Source: Gammaproteobacteria bacterium
Lineage (GTDB): Bacteria; Pseudomonadota; Gammaproteobacteria; JAKEHO01
Reading direction: 5' to 3'
DNA length: 64,000 nt
Assembly (NCBI GenBank): GCA_022614965.1
Contig: JAKEHO010000071.1
Span: forward strand, 19,804 to 83,803
Part shown: positions 2,021-26,224 of the stretch, piece after piece
How the letters are laid out: each line of letters opens with the position of its first letter
Position numbering within the stretch: the first letter of the stretch is position 1
Translations under genes and position numbers: made by a program
The notes under the pieces: model-generated
Seen by the model: only the letters and a program-made list of their open reading frames with translations
Databases searched by the model: none
Told to the model about the DNA's origin: nothing

Positions 2021-2140
2021 GGGAGAGATTTAATTTTGGGGGCGGGCGGTGCCCGTTGCATCTCTACCTATCCCGCTTGATGTGATTGATTAACGCGATT
2101 GACGGACTTTCCTTTCAATGGGCAAGGCCTTCAATCGCCA
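2021..2140 (+). repeat. structured intergenic repeat R1 (modules A+B+C)
   Basis: gggagagatttaattttgggggcgggcggtgcccg..tctctacctatcccgcttgatgtgattg..aacgcgattgacgg...ggccttcaatcgcc. Confidence 0.9.
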
Positions 2141-2175
2141 CATTTCTAGAGCGTCATCGCAGGCGCACGCAGTAT

Positions 2176-2463
2176 TTAGCGCAGCAAGGCCTCGGGATGG
2201 CGTTCGGCGATGCGCAGGAGGGAGTGCGCAGGCCCTCTAGGCTTACGTCGGCCCTGCTCCCACTCTTGGAGGGTACGGGCGCTCACATTCATAAGGGCGG
2301 CGAATGCCTCCTGGGTTAGGCCAAGGCGTTCCCGAATCCGAACAATATCCTTTGCCGAGAGGGTCTTGTACTTACGGGTCTTCAACTTGATCTCGCCTTT
2401 CCGCCAGGCGGCGATCTCTTCCAATCCCGTGAGAATTTCCTTGCCAATATTGCGCTTACTCAT
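2176..2463 (-). CDS. XRE-family HTH antitoxin (partner of the RelE-like toxin)
   Basis: 95 aa starting at MSKRNIGKEIL. HTH segment LGLTQEAFAALMNVSARTLQEWEQGRR. ATGA overlap with the toxin stop. Confidence 0.8.
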   Translation of the reverse strand: MSKRNIGKEILTGLEEIAAWRKGEIKLKTRKYKTLSAKDIVRIRERLGLTQEAFAALMNVSARTLQEWEQGRRKPRGPAHSLLRIAERHPEALLR

Positions 2464-2774
2464 TTCAAAGTCTCCACAAGTCTTCGAATCCGCTTCAAGG
2501 TATCGGCGTCGATGTCTTCGCGCTCGCCCTTGGTATAGGCCGTCAGCAAATAAATGTGATCTTTCCTGGGTACCCAATAGTAGATCACCCGTGCGCCTCC
2601 AGATTTTCCTTTGCCGCGGATGGCCCACCTCAGCTTGCGAATTCCGCCGCTACCGCGAATGACCTTGCCCACGTCGGGCCGAGCCATGAGGAGGGTCTGC
2701 AGGGCAGTGTACTCGTCGTCACTCATGATCTTCGTGATGATGCTGGTAAAGAGCGTCGTTTCGACGAATATCAT
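2460..2774 (-). CDS. type II toxin, RelE/HigB-like
   Basis: 104 aa. Motif GGIRKLRW...GKGKSGGARVIYYW...IYLLTAYTKGEREDI is typical of RelE-family toxins. Lies upstream of, and is coupled to, the HTH antitoxin. Confidence 0.8.
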   Translation of the reverse strand: MIFVETTLFTSIITKIMSDDEYTALQTLLMARPDVGKVIRGSGGIRKLRWAIRGKGKSGGARVIYYWVPRKDHIYLLTAYTKGEREDIDADTLKRIRRLVETLK

Positions 2775-2881
2775 TTCCGCATACTACGTCATTGACGTAG
2801 TTAAGTCAAGATCCCAAACAGATCGCTGCCAATCTTGGTATTCCTCGATAAGGCTCTGGGCGCGCCAGCCGATCTATGAGG

Positions 2882-2999
2882 AGGACACAGAGGGTAGAAA
2901 AGTCGTTGGGAGTCTTTTCTTGCGTATATTTTCGGTGGCGGGCGGTGCCCGGCGTGTCGTTATATATATCCCGCTTGATGTGATCGGGCCACATCGCGG
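2882..2999 (+). repeat. repeat R2 (A with extra hairpin insertion + B + partial C)
   Basis: aggacacagagggtAGAAAAGtcgttgggagtCTTTTCTtgcgtatattttcggtggcgggcggtgcccg..tatcccgcttgatgtgatcgggccacatcgcgg. Abuts the hemolysin III stop codon. Confidence 0.85.
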
Positions 3000-3617
3000 T
3001 CAGGCGACGTACAAAACTACGGCAAGGTAGTGGGTGACGCTGCCAGTCAGTACGAATAGATGCCAGATGGCGTGGGCATGGCGAAGGCTATCAGCCACGG
3101 CGTAGAAACCGATGCCCGCGGTGTAAAACAGGCCGCCCGCTACCAACCAGACTATGCCTTGAAGGGGCAAGGCCTGCAATAACGGATTCAGGGCGATCAA
3201 GGCGAGCCAGCCCATCGCGAGATATATCACCACCGGCAGGATCCTGCGCCCTTTCCGCGGGAGAGAATCCAACACGATACCAAGGATGGCAAGACCCCAG
3301 ATCACTCCGAACAACGACCAGCCCCAGCCACCACGAAGCGTAACCAGAGTGAAGGGCGTATAGGTTCCCGCTATGAGCAAATAGATGGCATGGTGATCGA
3401 GCTTGAGGAAGACGTTTTTGGCCTTACCCTGAAGGCTGTGATAGAGCGTGGAAAAAATGTAAAGCAACAACAGGGTCGTACCATAAAGGCTAAAGCTCAC
3501 AACTTTCCAGGGGTCACCCTGGCGCGCAGCTAGAACCACGAGTACCGCTAGGCCCGCGGTTGCCGCTGCCGCGCCGATAAGGTGACTAATGCTGTTGAAT
3601 CTCTCTCCTTTATACAT
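3000..3617 (-). CDS. hemolysin III family (PAQR/YqfA-like) membrane protein
   Basis: 205 aa and 7-TM-like. N-terminal ERFNSISHLIG, plus YHS and HAxxH-type motifs typical of the hemolysin III family. Confidence 0.85.
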   Translation of the reverse strand: MYKGERFNSISHLIGAAAATAGLAVLVVLAARQGDPWKVVSFSLYGTTLLLLYIFSTLYHSLQGKAKNVFLKLDHHAIYLLIAGTYTPFTLVTLRGGWGWSLFGVIWGLAILGIVLDSLPRKGRRILPVVIYLAMGWLALIALNPLLQALPLQGIVWLVAGGLFYTAGIGFYAVADSLRHAHAIWHLFVLTGSVTHYLAVVLYVA

Positions 3618-3750
3618 CTATACATCATACATCTATACATCGCGTCGAAAGTGGAAAGGGAGAATGGAGCCAAGCTTGCATTATTGTATCATCCTTGATA
3701 AGTGTGCAGAGTTGCTATCCATGGACGCGATTTGCGATGGTTTAAAAAGG

Positions 3751-3812
3751 GGGACAGATTTATTTTCGGTTGCGAGCAGTGTCCGCCTTATCTCTAATTG
3801 TCCCGCTTGAAT
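3751..3812 (+). repeat. repeat R3 (A+B)
   Basis: gggacagatttattttcggttgcgagcagtgtccgccttatctctaattgtcccgcttgaatt. Ends about 12-15 nt before the GIY-YIG start codon. Confidence 0.9.
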
Positions 3813-3826
3813 TGCATAATATTGCA

Positions 3827-4123
3827 ATGAACTGGCACGTATACATGATTCTATGTACTGATAATTCGCTCTATACGGGGATTACCAATAATGTCGAAAA
3901 GCGTTTGTTTCGGCATACTGGACAGTATGGCGCCAAATATTTTCGCGGCCGTCGACCAGGGCAAGTGGTGTACCTCGAGAGTGGGCATACCCGCAGTTCG
4001 GCGACTCAAAGAGAGACAGCGATCAAGAAGATGCGGCGTATCGCTAAAGTCCATCTGATTGCCTCAGCAATGAACGAAGCCCCGCCTTTCACAGACGAAA
4101 TCAAAAGGATCAGCCTTGAATGA
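3827..4123 (+). CDS. GIY-YIG nuclease superfamily protein (UPF0213-like)
   Basis: Track ORF trimmed to ATG 3827. MNWHVYMILCTDNSLYTGITNNVEKRLFRH is a classic GIY..YIG N-terminus. Confidence 0.85.
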   Translation: MNWHVYMILCTDNSLYTGITNNVEKRLFRHTGQYGAKYFRGRRPGQVVYLESGHTRSSATQRETAIKKMRRIAKVHLIASAMNEAPPFTDEIKRISLE

Positions 4124-4197
4124 CATGGCGATTTACTAGTGGATCAAATGATTCAGACCGCAGGGTGGAGACAAGAAGAAGTGTAAACGAGAAGAAA

Positions 4198-4328
4198 GGG
4201 ACAGATTTATTTTCGGTTGCGGGCGGTGCCCGCTTTATCTCTATAATATATATCCCGCTTGATGTGATTTCTTGAAGCGATTTATGGGCCTTGTGCTCAA
4301 TGGGAGCTACACCCAGCCTTCAACGCCA
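4198..4328 (+). repeat. repeat R4 (A+B+C), near-consensus copy
   Basis: gggacagatttattttcggttgcgggcggtgcccgctttatctctataatatatatcccgcttgatgtgatttcttgaagcgatttatgggcc...agccttcaacgcc. Confidence 0.95.
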
Positions 4329-4381
4329 CCACCGGCTAGGACACCTCCGTTCCCTTTCGGACCAAGCCACCGGTATAACGC

Positions 4382-4411
4382 TTGACGTTATATAACGGCA
4401 GGCGTTATACT
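4382..4411 (+). promoter_or_regulatory. candidate higBA promoter with palindromic operator
   Basis: TTGACG (4382-4387), an 18-nt spacer, then TATACT (4406-4411). A perfect 12-bp palindrome CGTTATATAACG lies at 4386-4397, and CGTTATA is repeated at 4403-4409. Caveat: the -10 ends only about 7 nt before the proposed GTG start. Confidence 0.3.
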
Positions 4412-4417
4412 CTTTTG

Positions 4418-4702
4418 GTGATAAAGACCTTTCGCTCATCTGAAACAGAGTGCATCTGGAGGGGCGAAGTATCACGGCGGTTGCCACCCGCCATGCAACA
4501 CGTTGCGCGGCGTAAGCTGCGCATGCTGAACAACGCCGCTAGCTTGGGTGATCTACGGGTGCCGCCTGCCAACCGGCTGGAGGCGCTACGTGGCGCTAGA
4601 AAGGGACAGCATAGCATTCGTATCAACGATCGTTGGCGCATCTGTTTCGTGTGGAAAGGCAGTGACGCCTACGACGTGGAGATCGTGGATTATCATAGGT
4701 AG
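4418..4702 (+). CDS. higB: HigB-family toxin (plasmid maintenance system killer)
   Basis: Track ORF 4382..4702. The likely start is GTG 4418 (VIKTFRSS..). The C-terminus RINDRWRICFVWKGSDAYDVEIVDYH is typical of HigB. Confidence 0.8.
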   Translation: MIKTFRSSETECIWRGEVSRRLPPAMQHVARRKLRMLNNAASLGDLRVPPANRLEALRGARKGQHSIRINDRWRICFVWKGSDAYDVEIVDYHR

Positions 4703-4720
4703 AAGACGGAGCAGTACGTT

Positions 4721-5011
4721 ATGGCGAGACTACCCAACATACATCCCGGCGAAGTACTCCTCGAGGAGTTGTTGAAGCCGATGGGCATCAGCCAGAACAA
4801 GATCGCCCGCGAGATCGGTGTATCCCCTCGGCGGATCAACGAGATCGTACACGGCAAGCGGGCGATCACCGCGGACACCGCGCTGCGGCTGGCGAAGTAC
4901 CTTGGAGTGTCCGAGTCCTTTTGGATGGGGCTGCAGGCGGACTACGACCTGGAGGAAGCCAGGAAAGGGCTCGGTAGGAAGCTTGACCGCGTGCGGCCGC
5001 ACGCGGCCTAG
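4721..5011 (+). CDS. higA: HigA-family antitoxin (XRE HTH)
   Basis: 96 aa. HPGEVLLEELLKPMGISQNKIAREIGVSPRRINEIVHGKRAITADTALRLAKYLG is the canonical HigA sequence. Confidence 0.9.
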   Translation: MARLPNIHPGEVLLEELLKPMGISQNKIAREIGVSPRRINEIVHGKRAITADTALRLAKYLGVSESFWMGLQADYDLEEARKGLGRKLDRVRPHAA

Positions 5012-5080
5012 TCCATTGGCGTTTGATTACTGTATTTCGCCGAGCCCAAGCCGCCGGTGCAACTCACATACCGTGAGTAA

Positions 5081-5181
5081 GGGAACAGGTCGGAAAACGG
5101 ATCGGGCGTCTTTTCCGGCGTATATTTTTAGTTACGAGTGGTGCCCATCGTATATCAAACTATCCCGCTTGATGTGATTGG
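5081..5181 (+). repeat. repeat R5 (A with extra hairpin insertion + B)
   Basis: gggaacaggtcGGAAAAcggatcgggcgtcTTTTCCggcgtatatttttagttacgagtggtgcccatcgtatatcaaactatcccgcttgatgtgattg. Confidence 0.85.
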
Positions 5182-5300
5182 GTATAAAGTGTCATGTTAT
5201 ATCGCACCGTTAAGTCATCTCGTCATAGTTAGATAGTCTGCGCTCGTCACTATCATGGTTCGGTCAGAACACTCGTTACGCAAGAAAAAGGAGGTGCCTG

Positions 5301-5600
5301 ATGGATCCGAAGTCGCTAGGCGTGGTGGCGAGATTAAAGGCACGACCGGATAAGGTGAACGAACTTCGTTCCCTCTTGTTCGGACTGCTTGCCCCGACGC
5401 GACGTGAACCGGGCTGTATCCGCTACGAAATGCTCGTGAACAGGAAAGACCCGACGGAGTTTACGTTTATCGAGGAGTGGCAAGACGAACCAGCGCTCGA
5501 AGTTCATTTTGGCACAGATCATATCCGGTATGCGCTGGAGAGGTTTCCGGACCTGCTTGCAGAAGAGCTGGACGTTCGACGCTATAACCTGGTGGGCTAG
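5301..5600 (+). CDS. antibiotic biosynthesis monooxygenase (ABM) domain protein
   Basis: 99 aa. Has the pattern ARLKARPDKVNELRSLL...GCIRYEMLVNRKDPTEFTFIEEWQDEPALEVH. An RBS aaggagg lies upstream. Confidence 0.8.
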   Translation: MDPKSLGVVARLKARPDKVNELRSLLFGLLAPTRREPGCIRYEMLVNRKDPTEFTFIEEWQDEPALEVHFGTDHIRYALERFPDLLAEELDVRRYNLVG

Positions 5601-5617
5601 CTATGGACGATAATAGA

Positions 5618-5737
5618 GGAAGAGCGTCATTTTTGCGTGCGGGCGGTGCCCGGATTGTCTTTATATATTCCGCTTGATGTGATTCGTTGACGCGATCGAA
5701 GCGCTTGCCCGAGGAGGCAAGCTCCACCAATCGCGGC
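5618..5737 (+). repeat. repeat R6 (A+B+C)
   Basis: ggaagagcgtcatttttgcgtgcgggcggtgcccggattgtctttatatattccgcttgatgtgattcgttgacgcgatcgaagcgc...ccaccaatcgcggc. Confidence 0.9.
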
Positions 5738-5857
5738 TTTTAACATATCTTTGAACGAGACCAAACGCTATACTGGTTATTCGTGCCGGCTTTCGCTTTT
5801 GTTGATATCTAGACAAATTTGGCCGTTCTCTTATTTATTAGGGGTGTAAGGAAAAAA

Positions 5858-6304
5858 ATGGTAGAGCACTCCATCCAACTTTCGATACCAATTGCGTGGC
5901 TTCGCCTGAACGGCGTGTACCGCCTGTGGCGCTGGGGAGACAAGAAGAATGTGGGACTCGACTCGAATTGGGCGAAGCGAAACGTGATCTACCGATGGGT
6001 CAAAAACTCCACCGGCGAAGTCGCGACGATTGGCGAAACTGAGCGTATGTTGACTGAGCGGGCTGACACCTACTTGCAGGCGAAACGTGGGGGAGGTGCG
6101 GATCCAACCAAAAATAAGCTTTACCAAGAGCAGTCTCGACTAGAAAGGGACGGGGATTTCTTGTACCTGGAGTTCACTGAGGATGTCCTCGGATATGATC
6201 TTACCGATCAAAGCGATAGGCGGATGGCCGAGAGTCTCCTTGTGCGCGCCATCAAACCGTATTTTCAATCTACTTCAACCGAATCAAGACAATCCGACAC
6301 CTAA
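5858..6304 (+). CDS. hypothetical protein with GIY-YIG-like motifs
   Basis: Trimmed to ATG 5858 (RBS aaggaaaaaaATG). VIYRWVKNSTGEVATIGETERMLTER resembles GIY-x11-YIG-x-R, and ESLLVRAIKPYFQ resembles the C-terminal E..L...KP.N motif. Confidence 0.5.
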   Translation: MVEHSIQLSIPIAWLRLNGVYRLWRWGDKKNVGLDSNWAKRNVIYRWVKNSTGEVATIGETERMLTERADTYLQAKRGGGADPTKNKLYQEQSRLERDGDFLYLEFTEDVLGYDLTDQSDRRMAESLLVRAIKPYFQSTSTESRQSDT

Positions 6305-6552
6305 CGATTCAGGGTCACTTAGAGGACACCCATTCTGAATTCATGGCGTAGATTTAACCGTATCTTATCCTTGACCTGCGACCGAAAATAATTGTGGCTT
6401 TCGGGTGCGGCTCGCGTATAGTGTGCGCGTTGCAGTACACTTCTTGTAGTTAGTTCGGAAGTCCCTCCAGGTTTTTCGGCAGCTACTCCCGCATTCTCAC
6501 TTTCAGGAACGAACTGCAGAACATCGCAATTAAACCAAACAGAGGTATTTCC

Positions 6553-6756
6553 GTGAATACAGGCACAGTAAAGTGGTTCAACGATAGTAAGGGCTACGGC
6601 TTTATTACCCTTGAGGACGGGAGCAAGGATGTATTCGTGCATCACTCCGCCATCGAGGGTGATGGCTTCAAATCCCTGACCGAGGGCCAAAAGGTGACGT
6701 TCGAAATCGAGCAAGGCCCGAAGGGTCCGTCGGCAGTGAAAGTTCAGGCGGCCTAA
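6553..6756 (+). CDS. CspA-family cold-shock protein
   Basis: 67 aa. [15 protein letters not shown] (RNP1) and VFVHHSAI (RNP2). GTG start, preceded by more than 200 nt without ORFs, as is usual for csp leaders. Confidence 0.95.
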
Positions 6757-6792
6757 GCGTCAAGTACTGCGCAAGCAGGTTTTAGACGAAGA

Positions 6793-6817
6793 CCCCGCCA
6801 CCCGGCGGGGTTTTTTT
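6793..6817 (+). terminator. rho-independent terminator after csp
   Basis: CCCCGCC-accc-GGCGGGG followed by TTTTTTT. Confidence 0.85.
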
Positions 6818-6847
6818 CTTGGAGGGATAAGGTATCAGGAACCTTTT

Positions 6848-6909
6848 GACAACCTATTTTTAGTTGCGGGCGGTGCCCGTCAGGGATTGGAGGGTCAGGT
6901 CTTCAATTG
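6848..6909 (+). repeat. repeat R7 (A + C-like hairpin, B missing)
   Basis: gacaacctatttttagttgcgggcggtgcccgtcagggattggagggtcaggtcttcaattg. Confidence 0.75.
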
Positions 6910-6981
6910 TGAATCTCATTTGCCCATCCATGCGAGCACGTTGATGCCTGTGATCGCATGTGACTAAGTGATGGTAGAAAG

Positions 6982-7302
6982 ATGAGTAATAAACTGGGCG
7001 GTAGGGTAGTTTATATCGTTCCGCGGACTTGGCTCGGGCGTCTAGTTGCCTTCGTGGCCATTGTCGCGGTGTTTTTTTTGGGTATATTGTTCTTTGCTGT
7101 TTTTCTCGCAGCAATTGCCGCTGTCGCTGCTGTCGTAATCGCGCGGATATTATGGCTTCAGAGGCAAATCCGTCGACAGGGGTCGAAAGATTTCATTGAA
7201 GTGGAGTACACAGTGGAAGACACTGAAACGCGCCGGCCGGGCGAGATAGCACAATCGGATTCACAACGCGCAAAGGACCACGAAAATGAAGCGAATCACT
7301 GA
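6982..7302 (+). CDS. hypothetical membrane protein
   Basis: 106 aa with two hydrophobic helices (LVAFVAIVAVFFLGILFFAVFLAAIAAVAAVVIA) and a charged tail. Confidence 0.55.
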   Translation: MSNKLGGRVVYIVPRTWLGRLVAFVAIVAVFFLGILFFAVFLAAIAAVAAVVIARILWLQRQIRRQGSKDFIEVEYTVEDTETRRPGEIAQSDSQRAKDHENEANH

Positions 7303-7337
7303 CTCTCGAAAGCTACGCAATAAAAACAAAATAAAGT

Positions 7338-7400
7338 GGGGACAGATTTATTTTCGGTCGCGGGCGGTGCCCGAATTATCTCTTATCCCGCTTGATGTGA
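7338..7400 (+). repeat. repeat R8 (A+B)
   Basis: ggggacagatttattttcggtcgcgggcggtgcccgaattatctcttatcccgcttgatgtga. Confidence 0.95.
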
Positions 7401-7482
7401 AATCGTACAACACGGAAGTCCGGCAAAGGAAGCTCATCGGAACTCTGTTGATTGCGCAAACAGTCGCGTAACTCTGGTGCGC

Positions 7483-8727
7483 CTAGTCGCTCGCAGGGGC
7501 ACTAAAACCGGGCGGATATTTCTGCCACGGGTAGCCTTCCCGCGCCAGTTGATAGGCGTAGTCAAACAACTTCCGCATATAGTCGGTATCAAAATCCATT
7601 TTATGTTCGGCATTGAAATTCGCGCCGATATACGCGAGGTTATAGTCAATTCCATCCCGTTGAGCAATCGTGTATATCTGATAAAGGTCGCCAACGCCCT
7701 GGGTTTGAATGAGTGACGATATAGTGCGACTCAGAATGTCCAAGGTGCGTCGGTCTACGGAGGCCCAATCCGGGTCAAGGCGGGCATTGCGGATAATGTA
7801 AAGTGTTCTGTCGCGTTCGAAATGGCGGACTTTGGATTCCTCGCCTATGTTCAGAGAGGGCGGATAGGTAAAGACCTGCGCCATCGCCCCGCCGTCGACA
7901 TGCATTTCGTGATAGGGCGTTCCATCGACCTCGACATCGATCATGGTGGGAGGAAACGCCCCTGGAATAGCGGCCGATGCCACCATGATGTTACGGAACA
8001 GATCCACCGCCTTGGGATCCTTACTCGCCGCGATCGCGCCCATGTTCCAGATGACTGGCCGGCGCGCGTCCAGGTCAGTTGTCGCAATCATGAGAAAGCG
8101 GCCCTTGTTATATTCGTTTGCTATCTCGACCAACATTGCTTCGTCGATATACTGCGAGACCAGCTGCCATAAAGGTCGATTGTCAGCCATCGCGTCATCG
8201 AATACTGCGGCGAAGATGGTTCTTTTCTCGAGAACATCGTCTTGGGAAATTGTCGTATAGAGTTTCTTCAACGTGTCGTCATAGGCAGGGCCGAGGAAGG
8301 CAAAGGGGGCAATCAAGGCGCCCGTGCTGATCCCGGTTACCAGCTTGAATTCCGGGCGATTCCCGGCGTCAGTCCATCCAACCAGCAGTCCGGCACCGAA
8401 AGCCCCATTGTCACCGCCGCCGGAAATTGCAAGAAAATTAACTGGCGGCAGGGGACCGCGGTGTCCGGATCGAGCCAGGAACTGCTTCTCTCGCTCCATA
8501 CCCGCTAAAGCGAACGGGAGTATCGATTCAACACCGGAATCAGCAAAGAAACGCGCGTCGGGAATGCCGGGGACGGTGGCTTGTGTGGTGAACTCTGCCG
8601 GCACTGCGTCCCGGCGAGTCGGAAGGGCGCAGCCTTGAAGCAGAAGCAAAAATACGGTTACTGACAAGAAGCAGTTCCGGGGCAAACTGCTAGGGGTAAA
8701 TGGTTGGTAAGTTTCTTGTTTTTTCAC
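7483..8727 (-). CDS. patatin-like phospholipase, lipoprotein
   Basis: 414 aa. Lipobox LLLQGC, oxyanion GGGDNGAFGAG, nucleophile GISTGA (GxSxG), and DGG. Confidence 0.9.
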   Translation of the reverse strand: MKKQETYQPFTPSSLPRNCFLSVTVFLLLLQGCALPTRRDAVPAEFTTQATVPGIPDARFFADSGVESILPFALAGMEREKQFLARSGHRGPLPPVNFLAISGGGDNGAFGAGLLVGWTDAGNRPEFKLVTGISTGALIAPFAFLGPAYDDTLKKLYTTISQDDVLEKRTIFAAVFDDAMADNRPLWQLVSQYIDEAMLVEIANEYNKGRFLMIATTDLDARRPVIWNMGAIAASKDPKAVDLFRNIMVASAAIPGAFPPTMIDVEVDGTPYHEMHVDGGAMAQVFTYPPSLNIGEESKVRHFERDRTLYIIRNARLDPDWASVDRRTLDILSRTISSLIQTQGVGDLYQIYTIAQRDGIDYNLAYIGANFNAEHKMDFDTDYMRKLFDYAYQLAREGYPWQKYPPGFSAPASD

Positions 8728-8877
8728 AGTCAGACCATACTCACTGTCGCCTGGCGGTTCTTCGCACTCGGTTTTTGTTGAGGAACAGCAGTACCCGGGT
8801 CGTCATTATGCCACCGTTTCCCGGGTGCGCGCCAGAGGCGCTGGGCAAGAAGTGGCCGTCGGTACTCAACAGGACTA

Positions 8878-8930
8878 GGGGACAGAATCATTTTTGGTTG
8901 CGGGCGGTGTCCGGCTTATTTCTAACTATG
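8878..8930 (+). repeat. repeat R9 (A + partial B)
   Basis: ggggacagaatcatttttggttgcgggcggtgtccggcttatttctaactatg. Confidence 0.85.
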
Positions 8931-9054
8931 CCTCTTTTTGCGACTTCCGTCACAGTTTCGCGAGCGGGATTGTGACTCATTTCACACTGCAGGTGACCAT
9001 CTATAACTAGCATTATGGGGTGCATCCATTTGTAGAGGGCGCGAGGGTTTAACA

Positions 9055-9456
9055 ATGAAAATGCTTAAGCTTGCTTTCTTTGTCACAGTTTTTGCCTTGA
9101 CCAGTATCACGGTAAGCTCCTGTGCGAGTGTCACAGCTCGGCCGAGCGCGAGCGGGAATCGTGGTCACGGCCCACCTCCACATGCGCCTGCCCATGGTTA
9201 TCGTTACAAACATCAGGATGGTGTGGAGCTTGTATTTGACTCAGGCCGCGGTGTATATGTCGCCGTCGGCATTCCCAATTGTTATTACTTTGATGGCCGC
9301 TATTACCGCGCGCGTGCCGATCAATGGGAAACGAGCGTAAAGATCGATGGTCCGTGGGAAGTGGTTGCCGAAGCGTCCCTTCCTGTAGGGCTTAAGACGA
9401 GCCCATCGGGTAAGGACAAAACAAAGAATCATCCTGGGCGTGGGCACGGCGCTTAA
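9055..9456 (+). CDS. putative lipoprotein, unknown function
   Basis: 133 aa. Signal peptide with SSC lipobox-like cysteine. His/Pro/Tyr-rich mature part. Confidence 0.6.
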   Translation: MKMLKLAFFVTVFALTSITVSSCASVTARPSASGNRGHGPPPHAPAHGYRYKHQDGVELVFDSGRGVYVAVGIPNCYYFDGRYYRARADQWETSVKIDGPWEVVAEASLPVGLKTSPSGKDKTKNHPGRGHGA

Positions 9457-9478
9457 GAGACATAAAAACTAAATAAAA

Positions 9479-9598
9479 CGTACCGATTTATTTGCGTTTT
9501 CGGGCGCGACCCACGCCCCAACTCTAACTATCCCGCATGATGTGATGGGTTGAAGCGATTGGAGGGCCCTGTCTTCACCAGGCAAGGGCTCCAATCGC
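9479..9598 (+). repeat. repeat R10 (diverged A + B + C)
   Basis: cgtaccgatttatttgcgttttcGGGCGcgacccaCGCCCcaactctaactatcccgcatgatgtgatgggttgaagcgattggagggcc...gggctccaatcgc. Confidence 0.85.
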
Positions 9599-9621
9599 TT
9601 CCATTTGGTGCGCGGTCGTCT

Positions 9622-11027: not shown

Positions 11028-11248
11028 CGTGTTATCGCCGCAGTTGCTCTGTCGGTCAGGGTGGGCTCGAACGGCGAGCGGAACACTAGCATGAAGCGGG
11101 GCAGCTGTAAAAGCGGCTCGCGCCCTGATCCGAGGTGGCGGTAGGCCGACCTTGGACCACGAGACGCTCTGGTTGTCGAACGGGGTGAGTGCGGCACAAG
11201 CCGCTCCGCATTGTGTCTGCTCGTGTGCCCGCAGCGCGGGGGGATGGC

Positions 11249-12742: not shown

Positions 12743-12745
12743 CGA

Positions 12746-15156: not shown

Positions 15157-15231
15157 GCATTGATACGCTCGCACGGATGGGCGTACCAGTCGAAGTTTAA
15201 CGCTAGGGTTTATCTTGGTGCGCTGGAAGTA

Positions 15232-15383: not shown

Positions 15384-15425
15384 AGAACCTTAAACTAGGT
15401 CCTAAGGCTTTTGTACTCTTGCCGC

Positions 15426-17216: not shown

Positions 17217-17515
17217 CGTCGCATGACAGGGTACAGGTGCCTTCGTCACGCTGGCACTGATGAGCGTCACCTTCGTGACCCCTCGCCAGCACGCCAGAGT
17301 ATACACCTTGATTAACAGAACACCCGCATAAACAGTCTTAACATTTTTTATAAAGATATTTCGTTTTATCAATGAGATAAGGCTCATTATGTATGTATTT
17401 TCTTAGTGCAGAGTTTAACAAAGTTTACGGACAAGCCTGTTAAAGCCTGGCGAGTGGTGCTAAATTTGTGCGCGAGTGGGATTGTGTTTTTTAACCTGAC
17501 TTGGAGGGTGCCTCA

Positions 17516-17893
17516 ATGGCAAACAAAAAAATTCTTACACCGATGGTAGCGGCGATTGGTACGACGTTTGTTATTTCGTTGGCAGCCAGCCCGCTTGTAA
17601 ATGCTGCTGAAAACCCGTTTTCAATGAATAATCTTTCGAGGGGTTTTATGGTAGCTGCAGCCGAAGATGAAGGCCGCAGGTGTGGTACCTTTTGTGGCGG
17701 TGTTACTGAAAGTGGGAACCCACGGGGCGGTGAAGCAAAGTGCGCTAACATGTGTGCTGAGGTAAAAAAGTGCGGTACCTTTTGTGCTGGTTTTAATGAA
17801 ACTGGGGAACCGCGGGTAACAGCAGAGGGCTTGGGCGGTGAAGTAGCCAAGTGCGGTAACATTTGTGCTGCTGATCCGAGACTCAAGGAGTAA
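17516..17893 (+). CDS. bufferin/HvfA-type RiPP precursor (Sec signal, 8 Cys)
   Basis: ATG 17516 follows the RBS ggaggg. Signal peptide ..SPLVNAAE, then the NPFSMNNLSRGFMVAAAE motif. Four C-x3-C motifs (CGTFC, CANMC, CGTFC, CGNIC). Immediately upstream of the DUF692 and DUF2063 genes. Confidence 0.75.
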   Translation: MANKKILTPMVAAIGTTFVISLAASPLVNAAENPFSMNNLSRGFMVAAAEDEGRRCGTFCGGVTESGNPRGGEAKCANMCAEVKKCGTFCAGFNETGEPRVTAEGLGGEVAKCGNICAADPRLKE

Positions 17894-17958
17894 GCGCCTC
17901 TTAAGTCACCAAAAATAACTAAGTGAAGCGAAGGAACGTTCCATCCTTTAACCGCTGA

Positions 17959-18831
17959 ATGTCACAAGTGGAAGAAGGCGATTATCCTGTGCAAGGTGCA
18001 GGGTTGGGTCTGCGGCGAGTCCATTTCGACTCGCTCGCAGATCAATTTCCTGCCCAAATTGATTTTATGGAAGTCGCCCCGGAAAACTGGATCGACGTGG
18101 GCGGTCTTGTGGGTCACCAATTCCAGGCAATCGCTGAACAAATCCCTATCGTTGGCCACGGGCTTTCACTCAATCTTGGCGGTCCGGCACCGCTAGATGA
18201 GGCCTTTTTATGTCGTATCAAAAAGTTTCTCGATAGGTATAACATCCGTTGCTACAGCGAGCATTTAAGCTACTGTGCTGATGATGCACATCTGTATGAT
18301 CTGATGCCGATACCGTTCACAGAGGACGCCGTACATCACGTTGCCCGGAGAATTAAACAGACCCAGGAAATAATTGGTCGGCGCATGGCAATTGAAAATG
18401 TTTCCTATTATGCCGCGCCGGGCAAAGAGATGGAGGAAATTGATTTTATTAATGCGGTGCTAGATGAAGCGGATTGCTATCTCCATCTTGATGTCAACAA
18501 TATCTATGTCAATAGTATTAATCATCGTTATGATCCGGAAGCCTTTCTCAAGGCATTACCTGGTGAGCGAATCGCTTATGCACATATCGCAGGGCACTAC
18601 TTTCAGGCCGAGGATCTGCGGATTGATACGCATGGTGCAGGTGTAATTGATCCCGTCTGGCATTTGTTAGATGTTGCCTATGAGTGCTTTGGCGTTTTCC
18701 CGACGCTACTTGAGCGTGATTTAGATATCCCTCCACTGGAAGACCTCTTGAAAGAGGTGGATATCATTCATAATTATCAACGGAAATATCGATTGCTAGA
18801 TGATGGAAGCATCTCAAGACAACAAGCCTAA
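17959..18831 (+). CDS. DUF692 family MNIO-type RiPP maturase (BufB/HvfB/MbnB-like)
   Basis: 290 aa. GAGLGLRRVHF...FMEVAPENW...HGLSLNLGG...SEHLSY...LMPIPFT...IENVSYY is the typical DUF692 pattern. Confidence 0.9.
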   Translation: MSQVEEGDYPVQGAGLGLRRVHFDSLADQFPAQIDFMEVAPENWIDVGGLVGHQFQAIAEQIPIVGHGLSLNLGGPAPLDEAFLCRIKKFLDRYNIRCYSEHLSYCADDAHLYDLMPIPFTEDAVHHVARRIKQTQEIIGRRMAIENVSYYAAPGKEMEEIDFINAVLDEADCYLHLDVNNIYVNSINHRYDPEAFLKALPGERIAYAHIAGHYFQAEDLRIDTHGAGVIDPVWHLLDVAYECFGVFPTLLERDLDIPPLEDLLKEVDIIHNYQRKYRLLDDGSISRQQA

Positions 18832-19585
18832 GAGCTTTATTGATATCCAGTACGCATTCACACGTTATATGCGTGATCCTGAGAATCAACCAGCGCCTGC
18901 TGGTGTTGATGGTCGGGGTGTGGAGATCTATCGTGATCTAATATATAGAAATACTGAACATATGATCGGTAACTTATTTCCGGTGTTACGAAAGATTACA
19001 TCGGACGATCGCTGGAAGTCGATGATTCGGGGGTTTTTTAGGCAGCACCAATCACACAATCCATTGTTTACTAAGCTTCCACAGGAGTTTTTGCGATACC
19101 TTGAGCAAGAGCATGATGCCATTGACGATCCAGCGTTTCTTCTCGAGCTAGCTCATTATGAGTGGATAGACTATGCGCTTTCCATTGATGTTAGAGAGAT
19201 AGAGTACGAAGGAATTGATCCAGAAGGCGACATGTTAGGAGGCATCCCGGTGCTGAGTCCACTCGCGTGGCCTCTGAGTTATCAATATCCTGTGCACACC
19301 ATTAGTCCTAAAAACATGCCTTTAGAAGCTCCTACACAACCCACCTATATAATCGTATATCGTGATCGCAATTATAAGGTGGGATTTATTGAGCTTAATG
19401 CGGTTTCTGCCCGTTTAGTAGAACTGATCAAGGACGATAATAATGTCACCGGCGGTAGACTTCTCGAAACCATCGCTGCTGAATTGAAACATCCCGATCC
19501 CGAGGTCGTTTTTAAAGGAGGTCTGGAGATTATGGAGACCATGAGGGAGAAAGATGTTTTGCTCGGCGTAAAGAAAACGCAATGA
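18800..19585 (+). CDS. DUF2063 family RiPP maturation partner (BufC/HvfC-like)
   Basis: 261 aa overlapping the DUF692 3' end. FTRYMRDPENQP...VEIYRDLIYRNTEHMIGNLFPVLRKI is a typical DUF2063 N-terminal domain. Confidence 0.85.
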   Translation: MMEASQDNKPKSFIDIQYAFTRYMRDPENQPAPAGVDGRGVEIYRDLIYRNTEHMIGNLFPVLRKITSDDRWKSMIRGFFRQHQSHNPLFTKLPQEFLRYLEQEHDAIDDPAFLLELAHYEWIDYALSIDVREIEYEGIDPEGDMLGGIPVLSPLAWPLSYQYPVHTISPKNMPLEAPTQPTYIIVYRDRNYKVGFIELNAVSARLVELIKDDNNVTGGRLLETIAAELKHPDPEVVFKGGLEIMETMREKDVLLGVKKTQ

Positions 19586-19630
19586 TAAAAAATAAAGGGG
19601 CAGGATTCTTTTTTTGTTGATATCTGCGAC

Positions 19631-20215
19631 CTATGCAGCTGTTAGCGTTTCAGTTTCAAAGGCATTTTGCATTAAAATCTTCACCATGTCCTTAGCTTCC
19701 TCAGCAGCCTTAACCCGGGTGCTGACGCAGGCAATTATCAGCGCGCCTTCCATCAACGTACGGATCTGCCGAGCTAACTCAGCCGGATTTTTAGCGCCTG
19801 CTAATTCTGCGAGGCCTCGCACGTATTCGTAGACTAGTCGATTGTGTTCAGCCGCTGCGGCGTGAATCGGATGGCCTGGCTTCGAGAATTCTGCAGAAGC
19901 CTTGACGAAGAGACATCCGGAGAAGTTTTTTTGCCTAAACCACTCACCTAGTACGTCAAATATGGCCAGAAGTCGGTCATATGGGGTGTCTGCTTGGTGC
20001 TCAACGCTTCGCATGAACCAGTTCCGCCACTGCTCATCCATGCGGTGAAGGGCAGCAAGGATAAGTTCATCTTTTGATCTGAAGTGGTTGTACAGGGTCA
20101 TCCTTGAGACCCCGGAGTTCGACAGGATCTTGTCGATTCCCGTGGCGTGGAACCCGTCGCGGTAAAATAACTCGACAGCGGTATCAATAAGCTGCTCGCG
20201 TTTCGATGAAGCCAT
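19631..20215 (-). CDS. TetR/AcrR family transcriptional regulator
   Basis: 194 aa. N-terminal HTH KREQLIDTAVELFYRDGFHATGIDKILSNSGVSRMTLYNHFRSKDELI. Confidence 0.9.
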   Translation of the reverse strand: MASSKREQLIDTAVELFYRDGFHATGIDKILSNSGVSRMTLYNHFRSKDELILAALHRMDEQWRNWFMRSVEHQADTPYDRLLAIFDVLGEWFRQKNFSGCLFVKASAEFSKPGHPIHAAAAEHNRLVYEYVRGLAELAGAKNPAELARQIRTLMEGALIIACVSTRVKAAEEAKDMVKILMQNAFETETLTAA

Positions 20216-20533
20216 CTTTGTCCAGTTTCACAATCTATACTGACTAATCGGTATTGACATTTTAGCATATGTTCCATATGAATGGCGAAGCTTTCGCAGC
20301 TTGTCGGCACCGGATTGGCGCGATTAGATCGCGAAAGCCTCTCTTTAAGTAGCTGTCTTATATATAGTTGTTCTTTTTGTACATCGGCTTATGCGAATTT
20401 ATTATAAAAAACATTGAACCAAGCCGTGGTTAGATTGACCAATCAGTATATCGTGCGGGTCACGATACGGGGACTCAGTAATGAGAACCAGTTATTGACC
20501 GTATTTCATTTTACTCTGATTGGGAGAACTATC

Positions 20534-20785
20534 ATGACTAAGAAAATTGCTGTTGTCGCAGCCATTGTTGCTGGACTTTTGAGTGGATCAGCCACGGCAA
20601 TGCCATTCCATCTTGGAAATTCGGATCGTGAAGACCTTAAGCGCAGCGAAGTTATTCAGGCGCCAGCGCACACCGATGTCAAGGCTTATTACCTTGAACA
20701 CGTGACCGTACGTAACGATCAGAACATTGCGTCCGAGCGTCAAATGGTCGATTTAGCCCCCTGGTACCTTTCCACACAGGGTTAA
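20534..20785 (+). CDS. small secreted protein, unknown function
   Basis: Trimmed to ATG 20534 (MTKKIAVVAAIVAGLLSGSATA signal). 83 aa. Divergent from the TetR gene. Confidence 0.55.
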   Translation: MTKKIAVVAAIVAGLLSGSATAMPFHLGNSDREDLKRSEVIQAPAHTDVKAYYLEHVTVRNDQNIASERQMVDLAPWYLSTQG

Positions 20786-20804
20786 TATCGACGGGTAGTG
20801 GCGG

Positions 20805-20840
20805 AAGGCCGGTACTGGTTATTTCTCGTACCGGCCTTTA
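20805..20840 (+). terminator. hairpin terminator candidate
   Basis: AAGGCCGGTAC-12 nt loop-GTACCGGCCTT followed by only a short T stretch (TTTA). Confidence 0.45.
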
Positions 20841-20892
20841 CGCACCTGATAAGCCGTTAGTTAACTGGGTCGAATCTTCAGCTCTAGTTGCG

Positions 20893-21132
20893 GTGATTGC
20901 GATGGTTGTGTCCAACTTCATCGATGAAACAGAGCGTCATGCAGAACTTTATAATGCTTACACGCCCCGCCAACGTCTCATCCTCGAGATTATTGAGAAA
21001 TCTCGCCAGAAATTCACTGACGATGATGTTGTGTATGAAAGGCTTGATGCTATTGGCGCCAGCGAGTCCGAAATTCACTGGCTAAAACGTACCGGCCATT
21101 TTTTTCCCATATTTGAATCTGAAGTAATTTAG
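20893..21132 (+). CDS. hypothetical protein
   Basis: 79-aa ORF (GTG start, or ATG at 20902). Acidic, helical. No family recognised. Confidence 0.4.
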   Translation: MIAMVVSNFIDETERHAELYNAYTPRQRLILEIIEKSRQKFTDDDVVYERLDAIGASESEIHWLKRTGHFFPIFESEVI

Positions 21133-21140
21133 AAAGATAA

Positions 21141-21258
21141 ATGGGATAGGTGCTTCTTTATGGGCAGAGCCCGTCCCATTTCCGATTATCCCGCGTAACG
21201 TGATTGCTTGAAGCGATTGATAGGGCCTTGCTTTGACTGCGGAGGCTTCAATCGCGGC
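21141..21258 (+). repeat. repeat R13 (diverged A + B + C)
   Basis: ATGGGAtaggtgcttctttatGGGCagaGCCCgTCCCATttccgattatcccgcgtaacgtgattgcttgaagcgattgatagggccttgc...ggaggcttcaatcgcggc. Confidence 0.9.
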
Positions 21259-21360
21259 GTTTTATTACGTCGTTGAGGGGATGCGGCAGGTAATGCTAGG
21301 ATGCACGAGGTACGCATAGTTGAACTCAATCGTCGTACCTATAACAATGAGAGGCATAAA

Positions 21361-21711
21361 GTGGTCTATTACGTAATAAAGTTAGTCATTACTGCCGTTT
21401 TGATCGTATTGATTTCGGAAATCTCCAAACGAAGTTCCTTCGTTGGAGCGATATTGGCCTCTGTGCCCTTAGTTTCAGTACTAGCGATGCTGTGGCTCTA
21501 CATTGAAACCAAGGATGCCGAAAAAATATCAGTTTTAGCAACTAGCATCTTTTGGCTTGTAATCCCTTCGCTGGCCCTCTTTATTACATTACCTTTGTTA
21601 TTAAAGCAGAGTGTAAATTTTTATTTAAGTTTGGGTATGTCGATTGCGATTACGGCAGGCTGTTATTTCATAATGGTCGCTGTGTTGAACCGTTATGGGG
21701 TCAAGTTATAA
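21361..21711 (+). CDS. DUF3147 family membrane protein
   Basis: GTG 21361 follows the RBS gagagg. 116 aa, 4 TM. VIKLVITAVLIVLISEISKRSSFVGAILASVPLVSVLAMLW. Confidence 0.7.
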   Translation: MVYYVIKLVITAVLIVLISEISKRSSFVGAILASVPLVSVLAMLWLYIETKDAEKISVLATSIFWLVIPSLALFITLPLLLKQSVNFYLSLGMSIAITAGCYFIMVAVLNRYGVKL

Positions 21712-21790
21712 GCTATATGTAGAACTTCGCTGAATCAGCGATTTGGAAAAAACGGATAGACTTATTTCTAGTTGTTGCGGGAGGTGGGCC

Positions 21791-22438
21791 ATGAGTACAA
21801 ATGAAGCGCGCCCAATGCCGACGATTGAGCTGGCAAAAAACGGTCCCTACCTAGTAAAGAATTTAACGGGGCTGCGTAACTCGAAGGGCGATAAACTGCG
21901 GATCAAAGCGGTGATTGCGCTCTGCCGTTGCGGCGGCTCGGCGAATAAGCCGTTTTGCGACGGGACTCATTCCAAAACTGGGTTTTCCGGCGAAAATCTG
22001 TCCGATGGCAGCATGGATAAGCGCGACAACTATGTGGGCAAAAAAATCACTATCCATGATAATCGGGGCATTTGCGCCCACGCTGGCAAGTGCGCCAATG
22101 GCTTGCCCTCGGTGTGGCGTGTGGGAGTCGAACCCTGGATTGATCCCGGCGGCGCTGACGTCGAAGCAATTATTGAAACCGTTAGGCAGTGTCCATCCGG
22201 CGCGCTGAGCTATTCCATTGGTGGGGATGAGCACCGCGACCAAGATCGAGTTCCAGCGGTATATGTATCAAAAGATGGTCCGTATCACGTTACAGGTGGA
22301 GTCGAACTGAAAGATGTGCCTCGAGGTGACGGCGCTTCTGAAGAACACTACACACTGTGCCGATGTGGTGGCTCTAATAACAAACCGTTTTGTGATGGCA
22401 CGCATGGGTACATCAAGTTTCAGGACGACAAGAACTAA
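21791..22438 (+). CDS. CDGSH iron-sulfur domain protein
   Basis: ATG 21791 follows the RBS gggagg. Two CDGSH motifs (CRCGGSANKPFCDGTH, CRCGGSNNKPFCDGTH) flank a Cys-rich central segment. Confidence 0.9.
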   Translation: MSTNEARPMPTIELAKNGPYLVKNLTGLRNSKGDKLRIKAVIALCRCGGSANKPFCDGTHSKTGFSGENLSDGSMDKRDNYVGKKITIHDNRGICAHAGKCANGLPSVWRVGVEPWIDPGGADVEAIIETVRQCPSGALSYSIGGDEHRDQDRVPAVYVSKDGPYHVTGGVELKDVPRGDGASEEHYTLCRCGGSNNKPFCDGTHGYIKFQDDKN

Positions 22439-22450
22439 CAAGGAATAAGT

Positions 22451-22566
22451 ACGGATTGATTTCGGGTTACGGGCAGTGTCTGTCGTGTCTCTAACTGCCC
22501 CCCTTGATGTGACGGGTTGACGCGATTGATGGGTCTAGTCTCAGGCAGGCAAGGATCAAATCACGG
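22451..22566 (+). repeat. repeat R14 (diverged A+B+C)
   Basis: acggattgatttcgggttacGGGCAGtgtctgtcgtgtctctaaCTGCCCcccttgatgtgacgggttgacgcgattgatgggtc...aaggatcaaatcacgg. Confidence 0.8.
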
Positions 22567-22580
22567 TGTGTTAATGCTCG

Positions 22581-23201
22581 TCACTTGATAAGCATCACAT
22601 CAGGCGACGTATTTGTAGGCTTCGGTGAAATTGGAACCCTTGTTGAACGTATCGCTTCTGCGGTCCACGTATTACACGTATTGAATGCATGGTATTTACC
22701 CTTGGCGAGATAAAAACGACTGTCTGTATATAGCCCGTCACCGATAAATGCAGACTTACCATGCTGGTCCCTTTCGAAACTGTCATCGATATATCGGACC
22801 AAACTGTCGAACTGGGCTTGCGACAACCGAAGCGTCGCGATCTCGCTGCTCCGGTAGTACTGCTGCGGAGGTGATGGGATCCCATGGACATGTAGAACAC
22901 TTAGTGAAGGGGTCAACAGAGCCTGTAATGCTAATGCCAGGGTGGGTTTTTTTGCTTGATAAAATACCTTGTCACCCCAACCAAATTCCAAGTAGCGTGC
23001 TTTTGGGAAATCATCCTTTTCGGGCAACAAAGTGTATGGCACGTCGCTCTTTTTTATGATGATTCCGCTATGCAGGCCATAATCGATGACATAGACGTAT
23101 TTTGAAGGCTCCGCTTCGGGCGATGGGGAGGGACGGTCAGTGGTGACGGAACAAGCAGCGCATGGAAGCAGTATAATGAATATGAGAAATAAAGGTCGCA
23201 T
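22581..23201 (-). CDS. TIGR02117-family lipoprotein (conserved hypothetical)
   Basis: Trimmed to ATG 23201 (RBS gaggtggg). Lipobox-like ACS. YLEFGWGDKVFY...VLHV...GDGLYTDSRFYLAKGKYHAFNTCNTWTAEAI. Confidence 0.75.
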   Translation of the reverse strand: MRPLFLIFIILLPCAACSVTTDRPSPSPEAEPSKYVYVIDYGLHSGIIIKKSDVPYTLLPEKDDFPKARYLEFGWGDKVFYQAKKPTLALALQALLTPSLSVLHVHGIPSPPQQYYRSSEIATLRLSQAQFDSLVRYIDDSFERDQHGKSAFIGDGLYTDSRFYLAKGKYHAFNTCNTWTAEAIRSTRVPISPKPTNTSPDVMLIK

Positions 23202-23303
23202 AATGCCCACCTCAACTGCAGAAAAAAGTGGACAGATTAGTTTGCGATTACGGGCTGCTTCTGGACAAAAATACATGAAACCACTCTATGGAGGAGAAAA
23301 ACC

Positions 23304-23597
23304 ATGGCTACATTTATCAGCCTTCTTAATTTTACCGATCAGGGGATCCGCAACGTCAAGCAATCGCCAGACCGCGCTAAGAAGTTTAAGGAAATGGCGC
23401 AAAAGGCCGGCGTTATGCTGAAGAACATTTACTGGACAGTGGGTTCTTATGACCTCGTGGCTATTGTAGAAGGACCAGATGATGAGACGACGTCGTCCCT
23501 ACTTTTGAGTCTTGGAGCCCTTGGCAACGTCCGTACTCAGACCTTACGCGCTTTTTCTGCTGAAGAGATGAGTCGAATCATCGCCAAGATGCCATAG
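23304..23597 (+). CDS. GYD domain protein
   Basis: 97 aa. MATFISLLNFTDQGIRNVKQSPDRAKKFKEMAQKAG...WTVGSYDLVAIVEGPDDE is the typical GYD-family sequence. Confidence 0.9.
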   Translation: MATFISLLNFTDQGIRNVKQSPDRAKKFKEMAQKAGVMLKNIYWTVGSYDLVAIVEGPDDETTSSLLLSLGALGNVRTQTLRAFSAEEMSRIIAKMP

Positions 23598-23604
23598 AGA
23601 AAAT

Positions 23605-23625
23605 GGGACAGATTTATTTCGCTTA
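23605..23625 (+). repeat. repeat R15 (5' fragment of module A only)
   Basis: gggacagatttatttcgctta. Same truncation style as R21, and likewise placed at the 3' side of a DUF899 gene. Confidence 0.7.
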
Positions 23626-23660
23626 AACTCTTTGCGACACCTTCTTCGATCTTCGGCGAT

Positions 23661-24328
23661 TCAAACCGCCAGTGGAGAGTACCAGTTGCCACGGCGCCCC
23701 GGTGTGGTGTCTAAGACGTTCCACAGCGGCCACATCGGATCCCTATGGCGCACATCGCCTTCCACCTCGGTATACCAGAGCTCCGATCCGAAAAAGCGAT
23801 GGATTGGGTCATTTCGCAGCACAAATACATTAGCCATTGGCGTGTGTGCGCCTTTCGCATCCTCGGCGAAGTAGTCGCTGTGGTAGCTGTTGTTTGCGGA
23901 TGAGAGCAAACACAAATTGTTCCAACCGCGCACCTATGCGAACTCGACGATCCGTTCGGTGGGCGAGCGCGCGGCTACCGCGAAATTGATCCGCTGCATG
24001 ATGTGGCGTGCATTGCCATCGAGCCCATCGAGGAGCGAGTTGCACGTCGGGCACGGTTTATCCATCTTCGGCCCATACAGGAACCGTAATGGAACAACGC
24101 GTCCTTATCGCCTTCGAACAGCTCCGACAGCCTGATCTTGCATACCTTTCCGCTGTGGTTCAGCTTCTCGAACACGTAGTCCGCTCTGACCACGCGGCCT
24201 AGTTGCACCGTTTTCGGCAGTGGCGCTATGCGTTCGATCTGCTGTCTGAGCCCGAGCCGTGCTTTCAGGAGATCATTTCGGGCTTGGCGGTATTCAGTTG
24301 TTTCGTTCGGAAACTTGGGGGTTGTCGT
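23661..24328 (-). pseudogene. DUF899 (thioredoxin-like) pseudogene, decayed paralog of 30883..31551
   Basis: Aligns along its whole length with the intact copy. The start codon ATG is ACG here (24326-24328). A 1-nt deletion lies in ..LFHYG|.. near 24070. AAG is changed to an in-frame TAG (EFA*VRGW) near 23935. The track splits it into ORFs 23661..23933 and 23975..24208. Confidence 0.85.
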
Positions 24329-24537
24329 TGGTATCTCCGCCTCTGTTACAAGTCAGTAGGAGTGTCCTATACGGGCAAACGGGGAGGAGTAACGGACATT
24401 CTACGGCTTCAAGAGAAGCTTGCCCAGCGGCTGCGGTGACGATTGCAGCTTCTATCCGTTTTCTGTAGCCGGTGATCAAAGCTGTGACCGCCGTTGGAGG
24501 GATCAGGTCTCGTAGTGCTAGGTCTGAATATCCTTAC

Positions 24538-24653
24538 AAAGACAGGTTTATTTTCGGTTGCGGGCGGCGCCCGTGTAATCTCTTCTGGCGTCGTATGATT
24601 GGCTGACGCGATTGAAGGCCTTACTGAGTTAAGAAAGACCCATCAATCGTGGC
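24538..24653 (+). repeat. repeat R16 (A + diverged B + C)
   Basis: aaagacaggtttattttcggttgcgggcggcgcccgtgtaatctcttctggcgtcgtatgattggctgacgcgattgaaggcc...gacccatcaatcgtggc. Confidence 0.9.
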
Positions 24654-26212: not shown

Positions 26213-26224
26213 AGTTATGCCGCA

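Follow-up and report, generated by a model that had tools for sequence, protein, structure and literature searches.

Small, mutually unrelated genes alternate with co-oriented repeat units in a 64,000-nucleotide (nt) stretch of a gammaproteobacterial metagenome-assembled genome (MAG), referred to here as the window. Each unit consists of a module A, a module B and, optionally, a module C, and module C is the subject of this analysis. These units recombine with one another: two rearrangements in a closely related strain fit one and the same position in module B. Module C itself is a bulged palindrome, and its length is held at 59-60 nt in the two species compared. It is not a canonical attC, the recombination site of integron cassettes. 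Our preferred reading, which we hold tentatively, is that a composite recombination site, specific to the genus, has C as an optional arm on its right-hand side; this site (A-B-C, in some units with a further module D) would work like a mirror-image attC.

Module C and the units that carry it

The window (G000:C76:19804-83803) belongs to a MAG of 2.3 Mb that is 87% complete (G000), and a sister species of the same genus is represented by a genome that is 97% complete (G001). A profile search with the repeat finds 24 co-oriented units on contig C76 of G000, and beyond this contig one unit exists on C68 and one partial unit on C64. The units extend from 2.5 kb left of the window, where three further units lie at 0.7-2.5 kb, to window position 31817, and the chromosomal gene-cassette array that they form is about 37 kb long. 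Its part within the window is as follows.

2015..31830, + strand: about 21 co-oriented A+B(+C) units between cassettes (profile search)

Module A is a 65-nt hairpin module with the pattern GGGACAGAT..GCGGGCGGTGCCCGC..ATCTCTAACTAT, and module B has the sequence CCCGCTTGATGTGATTG. The first-pass annotation of the window had placed about ten copies of module C after module B. The position is correct, directly after B, but the units of the window that carry C are nine.

2089..2147, + strand: module C of R1, 59 nt, both arms exact (DNA fold z -4.0)
4271..4333, + strand: module C of R4, right arm degenerate (from the copy search)
5686..5744, + strand: module C of R6, 59 nt, ending in TTTTAAC (z -3.0)
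9549..9608, + strand: module C of R10, 60 nt, arms GCGATTGG/CCAATCGC
13111..13170, + strand: module C of R11, 60 nt, both arms exact
15346..15395, + strand: module C variant of R12, TTGAAG, then a palindrome unlike that of the other copies (CTCAGC/GCTGAG), then TTAAAC
21207..21265, + strand: module C of R13, 59 nt, with the promoter-like module D after it
22516..22575, + strand: module C of R14, 60 nt, right arm AAATCAC
24602..24661, + strand: module C of R16, 60 nt

A short C-like piece is also found at 6883-6909. The arms of the R10 copy carry an A-T to G-C change on both sides. R12 and R13 are sister units, the only two in which ATAAATGGRA replaces GGGACAGAT.

Fifteen complete copies of C are available from both species and one metagenome contig. 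As described earlier, the arms GCGATTGA/TCAATCGC are conserved (GCGATTGA occurs 11 times where 3.5 occurrences are expected). Both arms are exact in three copies and most others have one or two mismatches; the degenerate copies are those of R4 and R12. The one-sided bulge is confirmed: on the 3' arm, 4-6 extra bases (GGCN-like) separate TCAATCGC from TTTRA, and the 5' arm of C has no counterpart to them. The TTTAA/TTTTA tail after the right arm is likewise present, and 4-7 nt past TTTRAY a triplet GTY or ATC follows in about 10 of 13 copies. Two details of the earlier description need correction. The inner stem given for R1 (GGCCTTGC...GCAAGGCC) is that of the consensus and not R1's own sequence, and the centre, described as variable over 10-25 nt, varies in sequence but not in length, C being 59-60 nt long in 12 of the 15 copies. 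About eight of the copies fold better than their shuffles (z -2 to -4.6), with a small advantage for the + strand, and 74% of the alignment cells pair in the palindrome, against 30-50% when the partner column is slid. C is a genuine bulged palindrome. RNAalifold gives no consensus structure for the units, and the covariation in module A, taken with its own structure, is not beyond shuffles.

That module C is optional is also borne out. It is missing from the units at 2927, 3746, 5123, 7335, 8873, 26165, 26949, 27437, 28246 and 31753, and copies with the left half only are found at G000:C68:6151 and C76:19183. In three units C is followed by module D, a sigma-70-like promoter pattern (GTTGAGG/TTGATT - 17 nt - TAGGAT, window 21266-21303) that precedes unrelated genes. 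In R13 it reads GTTGAGG-N17-TAGGAT and runs to ~21303; the other two are on G001:C61 (locus L028) at ~18640 and ~6860.

Exchange between units and the layout of the site

A groundwater run (X3) contains a strain ~95% identical to G000 whose contigs differ from the window at two junctions. In the first event, a contig joins 8927 to 9538 with TCCCTTT between them and skips a 610-bp cassette (ORF, open reading frame, 9055-9456) that has no counterpart at this place in X3. Along the contig, the patatin cassette and hairpin A of the unit at 8873 are followed by TCCCTTT and then by B and C of the unit at 9473, and the module C of R10 is joined directly to the unit at 8873.

8873..8945, + strand: left junction of the first event, unit R9 with A and an altered B (TTTTTG/CGAC)
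9532..9548, + strand: right junction of the first event, module B of R10 (CCCGCATG/ATGTGATGG)

The skipped cassette occurs elsewhere in X3, on a contig where an altered B of its own (ATCCTGCC/TTTTGCGAC) precedes it. When the three versions are compared, the exchange falls within module B at CTT^G^ATGTGAT. The partners have only 'TG' in common at the junction, which argues against homologous recombination for this event.

In the second event, a 611-nt contig joins 15334 to 21196, and 5861 bp are skipped.

15329..15352, + strand: left breakpoint interval of the second event, module B of R12 (CCCGCTTAACGTGATTGCTTGAAG; X3 contig)
21190..21213, + strand: right breakpoint interval of the second event, module B of R13 (CCCGCGTAACGTGATTGCTTGAAG; X3 contig)

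The joint lies inside 18 nt (TAACGTGATTGCTTGAAG) common to R12 and R13, and the resulting hybrid unit has its A from R12 and its C from R13. The block missing from X3 (window 15335-21195) consists of a thioredoxin-domain gene, which adjoins a bufferin-type operon for a ribosomally synthesised and post-translationally modified peptide (RiPP), a TetR gene and two small genes. Since the stretches shared at the joints (0 and 18 nt) are shorter than the assembler's word length, both joints are taken to reflect real reads, although the depth is only ~4x.

Both events fit one position in B, GCTT(G/A)^A(T/C)GTGAT, which directly follows the foot of hairpin A; C begins 9-10 nt further on and in both events stays with the downstream DNA. 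The expectation that units would excise or insert at module C is not supported by these breakpoints, which lie in module B, upstream of C, and not in or after it. The 'fixed point after GATGTGATTG' of the earlier description is the cassette junction.

Other points of crossover were considered and rejected. Left-only and right-only remnants of C suggest a crossover in its centre, with the cassettes as elements bounded by terminal inverted repeats, and both X3 joints contradict this. A canonical attC on the + strand with its crossover at GTTGAGG after C is rejected because the hybrid unit of X3 carries the C of R13. Hairpin A as an attC, cleaved at AACTA^TCCC, is excluded by the second event.

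The array is also rearranged between the species. The G001 array is found at the orthologous locus (synteny connects window 32.8-39 kb, on the right flank, with the part of G001:C61 below the array there), and nine cassettes are common to both genomes, at 74-88% identity and in a different order. Breakpoints from this comparison were rejected: at 75-80% coding identity the non-coding DNA is too diverged, so that the fall of identity at the ORF ends is no junction marker.

The mapped position suggests how the modules may fit together. The right half of B (CTTGATGTGATTG) is a direct repeat of the left arm of C (GTTGAAGCGATTG), and the right arm of C is an inverted copy. Because of this direct repeat, C is taken to be part of the same site as B; the constant linkage of C to B is also counted in favour of a composite site. 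A 9-nt spacer separates CGCTTGA of B from the first bases of C (TTGAAGCG), which are inverted with respect to it, and the exchange is at the boundary of the left arm and the spacer. By analogy, the layout is similar to that of a tyrosine recombinase's core ('simple') site, as in attI, loxP or dif, although the arms of the unit are short and imperfect (6/8) and its spacer is 9 nt long compared with 6-8 nt. The rest of C, the bulged palindrome, would provide either one more binding site or an arm of folded single-stranded DNA. Such an arm would fix the geometry and the choice of strand, as L''/L' and the extrahelical bases do in attC. An A-B-C site of this kind would mark the cassette junctions of the chromosomal array and may work like a mirror-image attC, outside the attC family.

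Module C, attC sites and alternative readings

The detection of integrons rests on an attC model and the integrase IntI. Both were looked for here, with negative results. A rule-based scan for hairpins closed by AAC...GTT on both strands recovers, as a positive control, textbook attCs (GCCTAAC...GTTAGGC) beside intI in ten relatives of the class. Its matches in the array are at background, four on the + strand and five on the - strand, and none of them is at a unit; the rest of the window has more (10 on the + strand and 7 on the - strand). The units are without the canonical cores R'' (RYYYAAC) and R' (GTTRRRY), which in attC close an imperfect hairpin of 50-150 nt, as the first-pass annotation had stated of the cores, and TAAC in module B, i.e., AAC in the 5' box, is indeed found only in R12 and R13. 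The covariance scan for which it had asked was made with a surrogate attC model (R3) built from 25 attCs of nine class relatives. While 11 held-out attCs of two further genomes score 26-61 bits with this model (E 4e-13 to 3e-4), the window reaches no more than 13.7 bits (E 0.34), at a place outside the units. Both scans are at background even for R12 and R13. A CALIN (cluster of attC sites lacking integron-integrases) is recognised by at least two model-detected attCs without a nearby intI; with the surrogate model no attC match exists at any unit. The best, insignificant score on both strands is that of a small palindrome at window 4373-4410, just upstream of higB, which is probably the HigBA operator. 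IntI (TIGR02249 over its cut-off) is absent from both G000 and G001. Because the attC scans are at background and IntI is absent from both genomes, C does not belong to the canonical attC sites.

The earlier description of C as attC-like holds in part: the hairpin with its one-sided bulge, the order of boxes and the cassette rearrangements at the units support it, and the model, the rule and IntI do not. As in attC, the palindrome of C is imperfect, its unpaired bases are on one arm and its centre is variable in sequence, and the unit has the order outer box, spacer, inner box, stem, inner box, spacer, outer box: GCTTGAT (GCTTAAC in R12; GCGTAAC or GCTTAAC in R12/R13), 7 nt, GTTGAAG, the stem, YTTTAAY, 5-6 nt, and GTY or ATC. 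Unlike in attC, the AAC/GTT triplets are replaced in most copies, where GAT is paired with GTC or ATC. In attC, strand selectivity comes with separate single extrahelical bases; here the 4-6 nt bulge, found in 12 of 15 copies, is one single block. It is on the 3' arm of the strand carrying most ORFs, the opposite of the canonical layout. The exchange is also mirrored, since both events are in the 5' outer box and not in the 3' outer box (G^TT of R'). In addition, half of the junctions have no palindrome, and the unit has an extra, better-conserved 65-nt hairpin A across the crossover.

There is no dedicated recombinase gene near the units. The recombinase would be either missing from both MAGs or not recognisable as IntI. 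The second XerD-type gene of G000 (on C65) was considered as a shared candidate and rejected, having no nucleotide match in the recombinase loci on G001:C41 and C135. The genome's own dif is on C45 (ACTTCGCATAATGTATATTATGTTAAAT), and the units do not resemble it; no unit comes within 8 mismatches of the 28-bp dif consensus, which is made up of an 11-bp XerC arm, a 6-bp centre and an 11-bp XerD arm. Another parallel is the folded single-strand attP of CTX-type phages (Xer-dependent IMEX, integrative mobile elements exploiting Xer). The site could depend on its bulged hairpin in the same way, and XerC and XerD are the only tyrosine recombinases shared by the genomes here. Unlike CTX attP, the units have no dif-like half-sites and make up a many-site array as opposed to one integration at dif, and the resemblance is a lead only. 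As to repeats mobilised by REP/RAYT or IS200/IS605 systems, the units are limited to one array and two further contigs.

Several points weigh against a composite A-B-C site. About half of the junction units are without C and yet keep A and B, A and B are better conserved than C, and the left-only and right-only remnants of C look like decay. The attC analogy leaves module A without explanation, and most ORFs face the 'wrong' way for the strand implied by the position of the crossover. Covariation in C is not beyond shuffles (own structure of C, on the alignment). The strain events are only two, each from contigs of 3-4x depth, and the second could stem from homologous recombination across its 18 identical bases. 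X3 also has 10 nt in place of the 108 nt at window 26093-26202, the left part of A in the unit between the AI-2E and DUF429 genes, which looks like unit decay between close strains. The absence of IntI counts here as well, as does that of a Y1 (HUH) transposase (PF01797, no match in G000 or G001), and the tyrosine recombinases of G000 are only XerC, XerD and one further XerD-type gene. In its strongest form, the composite site would be a new, IntI-independent site class, with two hairpins flanking a short crossover core in mirror-image attC geometry and with a recombinase not recognisable as IntI (Xer or other). We regard this stronger claim as rather improbable.

A decayed canonical integron is an unlikely alternative. 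The units would be strongly diverged attCs of an array that lost intI (a CALIN), C would be the L''-loop-L' remnant, and occasional homologous or illegitimate recombination would be all that still alters the array. In its favour, 147 of 401 class genomes have IntI, GCTTAAC/GCGTAAC is kept in R12 and R13 within an attC-like order of boxes, many units are truncated, and the strain-specific HerA-type island at the left border of the array could have replaced intI-attI. A relic of this kind does not easily account for scans at background with R12 and R13 included, for a crossover in the 5' and not the 3' box with the bulge on the opposite arm, or for the highly conserved module A, which has no attC counterpart. 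The length of C is still constrained in both species, and strains still differ by whole cassettes, which also count against a relic.

It is also doubtful that C is a regulatory or structural element without a role in recombination, i.e., a palindromic operator or an RNA/DNA hairpin in an intergenic 'insulator'. In such an insulator A would be a terminator, C a protein site and D a promoter, and cassettes would shuffle only through the similarity of the repeats. Consistent with this, at four units the inner hairpin of A resembles, on the + strand, a weak terminator, D (TTGAGG-N17-TAGGAT) stands before unrelated genes, and C folds slightly better on the + strand and is a palindrome of conserved sequence without covariation, as in protein-binding sites. 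C itself, on the other hand, has no proper T-tract after it, and no copy is flagged in the intrinsic terminator test, which looks for a GC-rich stem with a T-tract directly behind it. Its presence does not track the orientation or the kind of the neighbouring gene, and the junction of the first event has no homology for a RecA-type exchange.

Very unlikely is the independent nested element of the first-pass annotation, whether similar to a miniature inverted-repeat transposable element (MITE) or another nested insertion, with its target after GATGTGATTG, because, although the optional presence of C, its fixed position and its inverted-repeat arms would suit such an element, C is strictly linked to B (found only directly after it in G000 and G001, and never away from it among 399 other genomes of the class) and has no dispersed solitary copies; further, there is no target-site duplication at the ends of C, its left arm is a direct repeat of the right half of B, half-copies exist, and the two units queried have no plasmid or phage match.

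The array as a possible cassette platform

The cassettes include toxin-antitoxin pairs (RelE/XRE, HigBA), small enzymes and stress proteins (haemolysin III, GIY-YIG, ABM, cspA, CDGSH, GYD, MsrB), membrane or secreted proteins (two patatins, Cache, MFS, an outer-membrane barrel, AI-2E) and proteins with domains of unknown function (DUF2459, two DUF899, DUF429). Such content is typical for arrays of this kind. An Rfam scan of the window has a single match, the cspA thermoregulator at 6424-6818 (98 bits), inside one cassette. It precedes the cold-shock gene, itself a cassette and the most conserved one between the two species (88.6% identity).

Both borders of the array are assembled in G000, and there is no recombinase gene at either of them. 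The right-border gene was considered as a recombinase and rejected; it encodes a ferredoxin/MBL (metallo-beta-lactamase) hydrolase. The left border is a two-gene module immediately left of the window (G000:C76:13186-17264) that is absent from G001 and encodes a 768-aa protein without family match and a 583-aa HerA/FtsK-like ATPase. This module looks like a strain-specific defence island, placed where the attI/intI end might once have been. In a longer public assembly of the same genome (L159) the gene order is unchanged. An ORF at window 34589-35104 is 3 kb past the last detectable unit of G000. Because its G001 homologue (78% identity) is found between two units inside the array, the G000 array may extend, in degenerate form, to ~35.1 kb.

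Directly left of the array, among toxin-antitoxin genes, another repeat family is found, ~110 nt long and unrelated to the array units (G000:C76:8329-8437, 10151-10260 and 12320-12479). Further copies exist on C68 (5888-6005), C64 (10207-10267) and C69, and in G001 on C156, C163 and C7. These repeats have two hairpins, one perfect over 13 bp (GGTACTTTCTTGT AGCG ACAAGAAAGTACC) and the other CCGCACCTAAATAGGTGCGG.

Exact-pattern scans of genome and metagenome collections gave 77 loci, 76 of which are chance matches. The sole locus with real units, Ga0184639_10046205 (L101), is on a relative's metagenome contig and has, in the region 370-570, its first unit within ~50 nt after a tRNA-like fragment. 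ARAGORN makes no call there; the fragment resembles the 5' part of a tRNA with the anticodon TCG and is broken in the T-arm.

Among systems that assemble arrays of promoter-poor gene cassettes, only integrons are, to our knowledge, well understood. As in sedentary chromosomal integrons and CALINs, the array described here has co-oriented, species-specific repeats between small, diverse and often toxin-antitoxin cassettes, and as in integron arrays the cassette order is shuffled between species, with gain and loss between strains. It has the content, the fixed locus and the dynamics of a chromosomal integron, but its junction sites fail the attC model. An active site would mean that a class of cassette platform escapes the tools now in use, and that attC recognition follows less universal rules (conserved triplets, side of the extrahelical bases) than has been supposed. 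A relic would show the extent to which attC sites can drift in an array that is still turning over. In both cases the mapped crossover provides a concrete sequence for tests. If the IntI-independent reading were true, the array would represent a second, independent solution for integron-like arrays.

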